Below are positions 24,092-56,244 of a DNA stretch of 64,000 nt, one piece after another; position 1 is the stretch's first letter; the number at the start of each line of letters is the position of its first letter. Source of the DNA: Eledone cirrhosa. Lineage: Eukaryota. The position numbers and the translations under genes were made by a program. Under the pieces are notes generated by a model, which saw only the letters and a list, made by a program, of their open reading frames with translations, was not told where the DNA came from and did no database searches. The stretch is taken from contig OZ024742.1 in assembly GCA_964016885.1 (NCBI GenBank), forward strand, positions 90,892,001 through 90,956,000, in the 5' to 3' direction.

Positions 24092-24785
24092 GAAAAAAGT
24101 TTGTCCTTCATCAGTGATCTTCCAACTATCATAGGTATTTCATCGCTTTAAAGACCATATACCTCAGGTTGGTGCGAGCAACAGCTAAAAAAGTCGTTGG
24201 GACACGTAAATAAAGGGGACGCGAGGGTAAAGAAACAAAATGGTGAGGCAACAGAAAGTGAGGAAGGAGGAAACAAGTCCCAGATTTCTATGAATCTAAG
24301 TTCGGTGAAATCGTGAACGAGAGAATAAAGACCATCAAACCTGGTTGAAATGTGAGCAAGGAAGGAATTTCGCACAGGTCTAACGGGAGGAAGAAGGGGT
24401 CTAGTCTGCGAATTCGGTAAACATAAGTTCTGTGAAATCGTAGACGCGAGAGAAAAAATTCCGACCAGCTTGGCCGAGAATGTGAGAGAAAAGAGTTACT
24501 CACAGGTCAAACGGGAAGAAAGAAGAGGAGGAGGAGAGGTAGTGACAGAGAATGAGTGAGTGAAGGGCGAGGAAGAGACTAACAGAGAGAGAGACTGCTA
24601 GAAAGGGTAAAGATACATAGAACGAAAAAGACGGTGTAGCAGCAGAGGAAAAAATATGTGTAAATATGATAATAAGGGCGCTGCGGAGTTGCAAATGGGT
24701 TACATATGAAAAATGTTTGTCCTTCATCAGTGATCTTCCAACTATCATAGGTATTTCATCGCTTTAAAGACCATATACCTCCGGT
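24092..24785 (-). mobile_element. Terminally redundant ~617-nt non-coding element with hammerhead-like motifs
   Basis: 24092-24165 is directly repeated at ~24708-24781. Homologous to 55657-56244. (TA)n flanks. Confidence 0.7.
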
Positions 24786-24794
24786 ATATATATA

Positions 24795-25340
24795 TTGTTA
24801 TACATTGGGAGAGTCATGTTGCCAATAAAAAACACACGCACCAGTTGCTTACACTTCAATTTATTATAATAAATTTATAAATTTAGGAATTTATAAATTT
24901 CCGGTTGGTTGGTTGGTTCCACAACCAGATGGTTATTTATATATTGTCAAAGTTCTTTCGTCACACATTCTGTGACCTCTTCAGTGACTGGGCATTGTTT
25001 TCTTTGTTTTTTGTTGCCCCTCCTTTGTTCTGTCACACAAAAACAAGATGGCGTAGGACAGAACAAGGGAGAGGCACAAAAAACAAAGAAAAGAATCCCC
25101 AGTCACTGAAGAGGTCACAGAATATGTGACGAAAGAACTTTGACAATATATAAATAACCATCTGGTTGTGGAACCAACCAACCAACCGGAAATTTATAAA
25201 TTTATTATAATAAATTGAAGTGAAAGCAACTGGTGCGTGTGTTTTTTATTGGCAACATGACCCTCCCAAAGTATAACAATATCGGTTTCAACACACGTTT
25301 TCAGATAAAGAATCTTGCTAAATAAATTCAGAAACGAAAT
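24795..25340. mobile_element. Fold-back hammerhead element related to the 421-1705 pLTR (solo copies ~27020-27225, ~20255-20330)
   Basis: 24795-~25035 is inverted at ~25058-25282. Shares gaccctccc..aagtataacaatat..gtttcaacacacg with 1517-1556. Confidence 0.8.
25102..25144 (+). ncRNA. Minimal type I hammerhead (inverted copy 24946-24988)
   Basis: gtca-CTGAAGA-g-gtcaca-gaata-tgtgac-GAAA-gaac-TT-tgac. Perfect stems I and II. Confidence 0.75.
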
Positions 25341-53445: not shown

Positions 53446-55085
53446 TACAGAGAATTAGTATATCTACCAACATATGCGTACAGATGTACACTAATGCTAG
53501 CAAATACATAAGTTATGTCATAGTACCTAGGGGGTTCAATGCAGGAGGATGCAGAACAATAATATGAAAGACGTAAAATAAGAAAATTTAAAAAAAAATT
53601 AAAAATTAACTTACTAAAATTTTCACTCCAACTAATTAGTTTCTGTAATGGGATAAAGATAGTTACGTAATATAACCATCGAGAATTCATTACGTCATCA
53701 GGGAGTCTATTCTGAGCCAAGTCTCCAGGCAATGCGCGGACACTAGGAACTCATATAAAAATAATAATAATTCGGTGGAAGGAACAGCTAGCGGGGACTG
53801 GATTCCATGCACTGAAAAAGTTCGCTGCCTCTGGTCAAATGGCAGATTCTAAAGAATCAATCACGTGACACTGAGGCTAGTCGGAAGGAGTGGGTTGGTA
53901 AGATGACAGAAGCCTACTACCACACCAATGAATTAGTAGCGGATTTGGCAGGTTTGCTCAACAAATAAATAATTTGGAGATAAATACAGAGAATTAGTAT
54001 ATCTACCAACATATGCGTACAGATGTACACTAATGCTAGCAAATACATAAGTTATGTCATAGTACCTAGGTGTTTCAATGCAGGAGGATGCAGAACAATA
54101 ATATGAAAGACGTAAAATAAGAAAATTAAAAAAAAATTAAAAATTAACTTACTTACTAAAATTTTCACTCCAACTAATTAGTTTCTGTAATGGGATAAAG
54201 ATAGTTACGTAATATAACCATCGAGAATTCATTACGTCATCAGGGAGTCTATTCTGAGCTAAGTCTCCAGGCAATGCGCGGACGCTAGGGACTCATATAA
54301 AAATAATAATAATTCGGTGGAAGGAACAGCTAGCGGGGACTGGATTCCATGCACTGAAAAAGTTCGCTGCCTCTGGTCAAATGGCAGATTCTAAAGAATC
54401 ACCCTGATGACGTAATGAATTCTCGATGGTTATATTACGTAACTATCTTTATCCCATTACAGAAACTAATTAGTTGGAATGAAAATTTTAGTAAGTAAGT
54501 TAATTTTTAATTTTTTTTTTAATTTTCTTATTTTACGTCTTTCATATTATTGTTCTGCATCCTCCTGCATTGAAACACCTAGGCACTATGACATAACTTA
54601 TGTATTTGCTAGCATTAGTGTACATCTGTACGCATATGTTGGTAGATATACTAATTCTCTGTATTTATCTCAAAATTATTTATTCGTTGAGCAAACCTGC
54701 CAAATCCGCTACTAATTCATTGGTGTGGTAGTAGGCTTCTGTCATCTTACCAACCCACTCCTTCCGACTAGCCTCAGTGTCACGTGATTGATTCTTTAGA
54801 ATCTGCCATTTGACCAGAGGCAGCGAACTTTTTCAGTGCATGGAATCCAGTCCCCGCTAGCTGTTCCTTCCACCGAATTATTATTATTTTTATATGAGTT
54901 CCTAGTGTCCGCGCATTGCCTGGAGACTTAGCTCAGAATAGACTCCCTGATGACGTAATGAATTCTCGATGGTTATATTACGTAACTATCTTTATCCCAT
55001 TACAGAAGCTAATTAGTTGGAGTGAAAATTTTAGTAAGTTAATTTTTAATTTTTTTTTTTATTTTCTTATTTTACGTCTTTCATA
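53446..55085. mobile_element. Tandem + inverted array of a ~542-nt hammerhead-bearing monomer (retrozyme-like)
   Basis: 53446-53983 is repeated at 53984-54401, then the same unit runs in reverse at 54402-55085. Four hammerhead copies. Confidence 0.85.
53625..53706 (-). ncRNA. Type I hammerhead (further copies 54167-54248 -, 54402-54477 +, 54942-55023 +)
   Basis: actcc-CTGATGA-c-gtaatg-(inner hairpin gatggtta/taactatc)-cattac-a-GAAA-ctaattag-TT-ggagt. Confidence 0.8.
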
Positions 55086-55656
55086 TATATATATATATAT
55101 ATATATATATATATATATATATATATATATATATGTGTGTGTGTGTGTGTGTGTGTGTGTGTGTGTGTGTGTGTGTGTGTGTGTGTGTGTGTGTAGTTTA
55201 GATGACATAGCAAGAACAATGAATTGAAATTTGGTCAAGTTTCTTCTAAAGATGGTTCTTGCGTTTGGATCATACTCTTAAGTGGAGTTAATATTTTTTC
55301 AGGCTTAATATCAAATGAAGGCATGATGCCGTGTCTAAATACTGGAAATTTGTAAATATTCTTATTATTCATAATGACGTAATTATCCTTATCTTTCGGC
55401 CATCGCCAGAGAATGTCTTTACCAACCAAAGTATCGTTTTCCTGTTTTCCTTCGGTTGTAACTTTTTTGAAATATTTAATCTGCCTCTACAGATTGATTC
55501 TTCTCAGTTTCAGCAGATCCCGTAAAAGAGTGAAAGCAGCGATTCTTTGCTTAATCTTTAATCTGTACAAATAATATACACATACATGTATATATATATA
55601 TATATATATATATATATATATATATATATATATATACATACATACACACATATATA

Positions 55657-56244
55657 TATATGAAAAAGATGGGGAGAGGAATACTGCATGGTTGCACATG
55701 GATTACATGTTATAAAATGAGTCCCTCATCAGTGATTTGCCAACGATCATTGGTATTTCATCGCATTAAAAATCATATACCTCACGTTGGTGCGACAATA
55801 ACTAAAATAAGTTATTAGGACAATTGAAACGCGTAAAGCGAGTAAGACAAGTAAACAACACAGGGGAAAGCTAACCGAAGATGGAAAGAAACACAAGCAA
55901 CATGGTTATTCTGTCAGCATAAGCTGTGTGAATATATGAGCGAGTAAGAAAAGACCTTTCGTTAGTGAATCCGATGTTAGAAAGAATGAAAATCGTTTTC
56001 GTAGCGAACGGGAGGAAGTAAGAAGGGGAGAAACAGAGAGTGAGTGAGTGGAAGTGCGAGGAAGAAGTCAGTAGAGAGAAGGTGTTAACTGACATGACAG
56101 AGGGGACGAAAGAAAGTAAGAGAAACAGAGAGAACGAGGGAGCAGTAAGAGAGAAAGAGAGAAACATAGAATCGCAGTTTAGGTAAATATATGAAAAATA
56201 TGGGGAGAAGAATACTGCATGGTTGCACATGGATTACATGTTAT
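55657..56244 (-). mobile_element. Terminally redundant ~530-nt element homologous to 24092-24785 but differently permuted
   Basis: 55657-55714 is repeated at 56187-56244. tcatcagtgat...ggtatttcatcgc...catatacctca..ttggtgcga is shared with 24108-24176. Confidence 0.7.

Follow-up and report, generated by a model that had tools for sequence, protein, structure and literature searches.

Two sister families of short repeats with polar ends in (TA)n arrays of Eledone cirrhosa and a predicted type-SGC hammerhead in each unit

The window considered here, a stretch of 64,000 nucleotides from Eledone cirrhosa, contains two short inserts that are homologous to each other and that each repeat at their end the sequence with which they begin, the repeated sequence being a different one in each. 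The question raised by this locus is how such ends came about. In the original prediction the inserts were read as circular permutations, that is, copies slightly longer than one unit, with shifted start points, left by reverse transcription around a circular or tandem RNA. We consider it quite probable that they are instead short non-coding repeats of two sister families, which end on one side at either of two fixed sites in (TA)n and on the other side at scattered points; their insertion would likely be due to the reverse transcriptase (RT) of a Penelope-like element (PLE), probably of Naiad type, and each unit has a predicted type-SGC hammerhead on its minus strand.

Extents, redundancies and flanks of the inserts

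Copy A occupies 24092-24785 and comprises 1.13 units of 616 nt, with its first 78 nt repeated at the end, in agreement with the ~74 nt and period of ~617 described originally. By BLAST its ends (24085-24169 and 24701-24785) are 96.5% identical over 85 nt including flanking TA. Copy B occupies 55662-56245 and comprises 1.10 units of 531 nt with a redundancy of ~53 nt, its ends (55653-55714 and 56184-56245) being 95% identical over 62 nt with TA; the repeat claimed here (~58 nt, period ~530) is real, and its start lies at 55662 and not at 55657. As had been noticed, the opening of copy B is homologous to the end of the first unit of A (24688-24781 versus 55691-55783, 83%). A core is common to both (24103-24204 versus 55721-55822, 84% identity over 103 nt), and the alignment claimed for the middles is only patchy. 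The local alignment of B against a doubled A unit scored 244, and the maximum of 30 shuffles was 52. Both inserts lie in (TA)n, as stated originally, with TA arrays on the left (23416-24091 for A, 55574-55661 for B) and short TA runs on the right. Unit A carries an internal diverged duplication (24260-24399 versus 24387-24528, 72%, period ~127), which likely accounts for much of the difference in unit size between A and B. No ORF of at least 150 aa lies inside either copy; the one listed is the adjoining TA array reaching 48 nt into A. The features are as follows.

23416..24091, no strand: (TA)n array at the fixed end of A
24092..24785, minus strand: copy A, non-coding insertion; putative RNA 3' end at the short site without a tail (24092), truncated on the 5' side at 24785
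24103..24203, minus strand: predicted type-SGC hammerhead of A with bridging strand; H17 at 24158, predicted cut 24158/24157
GAAA from 24141 and CUGAUGA at 24114-24108, minus strand: core blocks of hammerhead A
24260..24528, no strand: internal duplication of unit A, period ~127, 72% identity
24654..24707, minus strand: tail segment of A (unit positions 563-616), internal in this copy and homologous to the start of copy B
24708..24785, minus strand: terminal redundancy of A, a truncated second unit with blocks S, G and C (H17 at 24774) and without the bridging strand
55574..55661, no strand: (TA)n array at the fixed end of B
55662..56245, minus strand: copy B, non-coding insertion; putative RNA 3' end at the long site with a tail (55662), truncated on the 5' side near 56245
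55721..55821, minus strand: predicted type-SGC hammerhead of B; H17 at 55776, GAAA from 55759, CUGAUGA from 55732
56193..56245, minus strand: terminal redundancy of B, in which the tail region recurs

Other features were observed in the window. Copy A is directly adjoined by a separate palindromic insertion (24786-25283), each arm of which has a type I hammerhead motif of conventional form (+25106, -24984), and this element also flanks other family-A copies (L024, L029). More hammerhead-like CUGANGA...GAAA motifs were found at +1297, -12920, 27421/27486 and -23032, one pair of them forming an inverted repeat, and the region 29290-35326 contains broken LINE-like RT and gag-like frames.

Copy number, ends and template

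The host genome (3.0 Gb) contains many copies of each insert at 95-98% identity (3,877 first-look candidates for A and 4,155 for B, the best 40 of each being scored). A 34-place core pattern had at least 8,066 exact matches genome-wide, a lower bound on copy number, and 0 in the control. A and B belong to different sister families, which does not agree with their being permutations of one circle, and further sister families were met by chance in the flanks. The unit length was 493-637 nt in 58 natural tandem pairs. With the main families excluded, a pattern of core and spacing only gave 486 matches versus 5 in the control, leading to a distant family.

Ordinary satellite or local DNA duplications, the latter being named in the original prediction as a reading opposed to its own, are contradicted by thousands of dispersed copies with polar ends at (TA)n sites and with covarying RNA helices. 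One array (L007), in which a 617-nt unit is followed by ~497-nt units without part of the internal duplication, has two identical neighbouring deletion units, as recent duplication at the DNA level gives; as an account of the repeats as a whole, we regard this reading as next to negligible.

In family B, 29 of 30 copies started at unit positions 1-4, adjoining TA, in a search that left them free to extend further. In family A the same end fell at unit position ~561-575, homologous to the start of B, or at position 1, where the window copy has it; the tail segment (unit positions 563-616) is the outer end in most other family-A copies. Considering the possible bias of the queries, the ends were surveyed in the first 30 core-pattern matches in genome order: 10 ended at a near (short) site, 16 at a far (long) site, including one (L115) placed by eye, and 4 were internal units. 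Two fixed end sites ~50 nt apart are therefore present in 26 of the 30 matches. On the minus strand the near site lies 11-16 nt after CUGAUGA (37-47 in family E) and the far site 55-66 nt after it (85 in family E). The opposite end was scattered over the whole unit in this sample. Merging 6 matches that share an insertion with another left 24 insertions, of which 22 extend beyond the predicted cleavage site and 8 are longer than one unit, in support of the originally proposed tandem or circular RNA template; none of the 24 had its 5' end at the predicted cut. Inverted, 5'-truncated arms, often ending at unit position 1, were present at 11 of 28 distinct family-A loci, and no inverted pair was seen among 30 family-B loci.

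Excerpts of PMC8557442 describe for PLE insertions fixed 3' ends, an optional tail, 5' truncation, inversion and (TA)n targets, and in those of PMC11167929 the tail of an Anolis PLE extends from one to the other of two internal RT start sites, with AT-rich cleavage. The repeats studied here have tandem or partial-tandem units with variable 5' truncation, as a non-autonomous element of PLE type does, and they also have the optional 3' tail, given by two fixed 3' ends, and the inverted 5'-truncated arms. The terminal redundancy and the pattern of the ends are in themselves known PLE biology. By this pattern the shift between A and B corresponds to the tail and the length of the redundancy to the truncation: the tail is missing from copy A and present in copy B, which explains the apparent permutation. 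The mapping of ends, which had been expected to reveal shifted start points and dispersed endpoints, gave one end (the left one, RNA 3') fixed at two sites and dispersion only at the other, and not the dispersion of both ends on a circular unit that random permutation implies.

Copies longer than one unit need a tandem (multimeric) or circular RNA as template. The divergence between units was lower within than between insertions, 1.65% versus 2.12% in family A (66 direct pairs) and 2.35% versus 3.47% in family B (33 pairs), and units of one insertion have subfamily alleles in common. No difference between first and second units recurred beyond 2 of up to 32. The likeness within insertions and the lack of a recurrent unit difference argue against one heterogeneous tandem master, and the unit data fit a circle and a homogeneous tandem transcript equally. 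Rolling RT from random starts around a circular RNA, with copies as circular permutations with dispersed ends, would account for copies that exceed one unit and cross the unit junction, for the common alleles and the greater likeness of units within an insertion, and for the lack of recurrent differences between units; circles are formed by animal retrozymes according to the excerpted text of PMC7229834. Considering that one end is fixed at two sites, and that homogeneous tandem transcripts yield the same within/between pattern, we find this reading very improbable. It is only the random-start form that we reject, and a circle copied from two fixed start sites is a possible part of the PLE explanation that we prefer.

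The predicted hammerhead

On the minus strand the core is ordered as a cleavage block (stem III strand, H17, stem I strand), a 3-nt linker, the GAAA block and the CUGAUGA block. With the order S, G, C, the motifs CUGANGA and GAAA, U16.1-A15.1 and a non-G H17, it has the features of type SGC, and we predict a hammerhead of this type, non-circularly permuted and with its stem II split. Past the first base pair of stem II, both of its halves are paired to an upstream bridging strand, which also bears a hairpin and prolongs stem III over a loop; stem II, of 1 bp as predicted, would be completed by this strand in a four-way junction. The loop in outer stem III resembles what we take to be a kink-turn, and it is absent or altered in the distant family. 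Types I, II and III were considered within one unit and discarded, as there is no stem II hairpin in the required order. In Rfam, the region 23900-25500 gave only hairpin and microsatellite matches, below cut-off, and no ribozyme family or hammerhead.

The fold was evaluated in an alignment of 31 sequences, two from the window and 29 that represent clusters among 103 distinct full cores. In the proposed fold of 36 pairs, 92.2% of the cells were paired and 14 of the 36 pairs were changed on both sides; 0 of 500 shuffles reached either value and slid registers gave 26-44% paired. These values are to be read taking into account that the fold was derived from the same 31 sequences, that the rows were chosen by a pattern fixing the core letters, and that the shuffles ignore relatedness, most double changes tracing to few family splits. 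RNAalifold alone recovered P1, P2 and stem I, and not stem III and its outer extension, pseudoknots being beyond its model. In stem I, 3 of 7 pairs had double changes; in stem III there was none within A1 or the 31-sequence set, and double changes appear between families, being supplied by the distant family, in which stems I and III are paired with different letters. Both stems of the type-SGC core are in this way backed by covariation. H17 was A or C in 30 of 31 rows and G in one. The only direct stem II pair between blocks C and G (11.1-10.1) was UA in 15, UG in 8, AU in 5 and other in 3 of the 31 sequences, and C-A in all 7 cores of the distant family. All three scaffold helices were found in 49 of 58 A/C, 36 of 44 B/D and 5 of 7 E cores, compared with 6-9% after shuffling; the distant family had all three in just 2 of its 7 cores. 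An SGC descriptor gave 181 matches versus 0 on reversed DNA in 1.04 Mb of loci that overlap in part, so these matches are not independent copies.

The strand is assigned by motif and polarity. A mirror fold of the plus strand pairs about equally well, and it was ruled out by its missing catalytic motif and by the polarity of the ends; wobble pairs favour the minus strand weakly (50 G-U versus 35 A-C cells).

Two further observations concern variants of the core. The distant S-G-C families (L161-L189, L206, L207; L182, L193, L195, L197) have the same core spacing, one of them having a longer P2 hairpin and, in part of its copies, an extra hairpin in outer stem III. Four loci (L213, L248, L264, L276) have clustered T>C changes across the core on the ribozyme-sense strand, as A-to-I editing of the opposite strand before RT would leave.

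A possible trace of cutting was found in a subfamily with a ~847-nt unit (L143:6258 and 7094; L223; L240; L224), in which an internal duplication ends exactly after H17 with no microhomology, and two or three single copies likewise break just after H17. A non-T base after H17 occurred in 42 matches in 40 loci (20 of the rearranged subfamily, which count as a single event of one origin, 19 point changes or indels and 3 others); one base further on, a change occurred in 32 matches in 30 loci (29 point changes or indels, 2 ending in TA and 1 other). Enrichment of junctions at the cut site was not demonstrated by these too few independent events, and the breakpoint is only suggestive of cutting.

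Alternatively, the conserved fold could be hammerhead-derived but non-cleaving, and serve the PLE protein as a signal for binding or initiation. A stem II of 1 bp would suit such a signal, as would the passage of nearly all insertions through the predicted site, with none ending there; ribozyme mutants of the Anolis PLE were without effect on insertion and cleavage needed protein (PMC11167929, in excerpts). What makes this reading unlikely in our opinion is that CUGANGA, GAAA, U16.1-A15.1 and a non-G H17 are kept in families A, B, C, D and E, found without selection on the core, together with the breakpoint after H17 in the single event described above. An ordinary circularly permuted hammerhead could also be assembled in trans from neighbouring units of a multimer, for example with S and C of one and G of the next. 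The units are tandem, hammerheads of PLEs and amphibians can act as dimers (PMC7229834, in excerpts), and pair covariation does not distinguish cis from trans; nevertheless all blocks lie within 100 nt, linked to one another through the 3-nt linker between stems I and II, the bridging strand and outer stem III, and the same local order is seen by eye at single Naiad ends, so that assembly in trans appears highly unlikely to us. A cis-acting type-SGC hammerhead is the form that we prefer.

Naiads, the mobilising enzyme and known systems

In the excerpted text of PMC8557442, Naiads target (TA)n and are described as without canonical hammerheads, several being flagged with an unexplained half hammerhead core whose other half lies at a distance. 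By eye, in excerpts of the consensus file of Craig et al., the octopus elements Naiad_Ovul and Naiad_Obim agree at their 3' ends with the repeats in block order, in the 14-nt spacing before CUGAUGA and in the hairpin loop, and every helix pairs with different letters. The 3' end of Naiad_Esco has the same block order; in three nematode or ostracod ends the fold is not obviously present, and exact core words were not found in the portions of that supplement consulted.

An autonomous partner was sought in this genome. A profile search with PF01541 gave 10,596 candidates, the best 150 of which were scored, and among 50 GIY-YIG loci examined, of C-terminal-endonuclease types, none carried the SGC core or a common 3' end. 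Cores were present in 5 of 20 ten-kb regions, never as the ends of an ORF, and two core pairs spaced 2.9 kb apart (L141, L142) enclose a broken Neptune-like element in opposite orientation. Protein searches matched C-terminal-endonuclease PLEs, patterns derived from Naiad DNA and peptide motifs had 0 matches, and twenty regions around rare core variants contained no linked ORF. As no Naiad or ORF-bearing element with the core was found in the genome, the mobilising enzyme is one that we infer. The Neptune-like PLEs of this genome (L062, L094, L102, L110; 3' UTRs) were seen by eye to have minimal or degenerate hammerhead cores, some with UUGA for CUGA or GCAA for GAAA.

The mechanism that we consider would begin with transcription of the minus strand as a multimer, which the ribozyme would cut once per unit into monomers that may close into circles. 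The PLE protein would nick (TA)n and RT would start internally at one of two sites, ~16 or ~60 nt downstream of CUGAUGA, and copy across the unit junction, on an uncut multimer or on a re-ligated circle, until stopping at random, in some cases with a second arm in inverse orientation. Use of the near site by copy A and of the far site by copy B would give the apparent permutation.

Several known systems resemble the repeats in part, each being compared here from excerpts of its source. Metazoan non-LTR retrozymes (PMC7229834; 10.64898/2026.07.22.740005) are likewise non-coding head-to-tail units with one hammerhead-like motif each, also dispersed as monomers and multimers and with a proposed dependence on PLEs. 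They are defined by a type I hammerhead, whereas the block order here is S-G-C in every unit, of 493-637 nt as given above; circles and cleavage were shown for retrozymes and are both predicted here on the basis of sequence. The A and B repeats work like a retrozyme, yet they fall outside that class by its type I definition. The type-SGC hammerheads such as HRIMA-1 (PMC10085705) have, as here, the block order S-G-C, a full core and a short linker between stems I and II, typically of 3 nt, and type SGC cleaves in vitro. Their reported sources are metatranscriptomes, not the genomes of known organisms, whereas the repeats are genomic and of high copy number; in the SGC ribozymes tested in that work block C pairs directly with block G, in contrast to the predicted 1-bp stem II with a bridging strand here, where stem III is also extended through a kink-turn-like loop. 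Naiads with an 'HHR_half_core' (PMC8557442) share with the repeats the (TA)n targets, the optional tail and the tandem and inverted insertions, and differ in encoding endonuclease and RT, the families here being without an ORF. The Anolis Poseidon PLE (PMC11167929) has two adjacent internal RT start sites downstream of a hammerhead and AT-rich targets, as here, but it is autonomous, with a conventional hammerhead and a tail of 30-40 nt versus ~40-50 nt here. A literature search conducted largely outside subscription journals returned no paper on type-SGC hammerheads in animal genomes or PLEs.

Taking these comparisons into account, we put forward tentatively, as a possibility short of being probable, that Naiads and their non-coding derivatives carry an active SGC hammerhead of a new architecture, with split stem II and kinked stem III, which would explain the 'half cores' and would turn about ten thousand repeats into circular RNAs copied by the Naiad enzyme from two fixed sites. 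In the excerpted text of Eckert et al. (PMC10085705) the question of how stem III and the stem I-II arm can meet at their far ends is not settled, and the kinked stem III may be one possible answer. A genomic, high-copy SGC core with a clear predicted cut site makes the questions of type SGC and of the Naiad half core testable, and it suggests that whole families escape retrozyme surveys whose descriptors are limited to type I.
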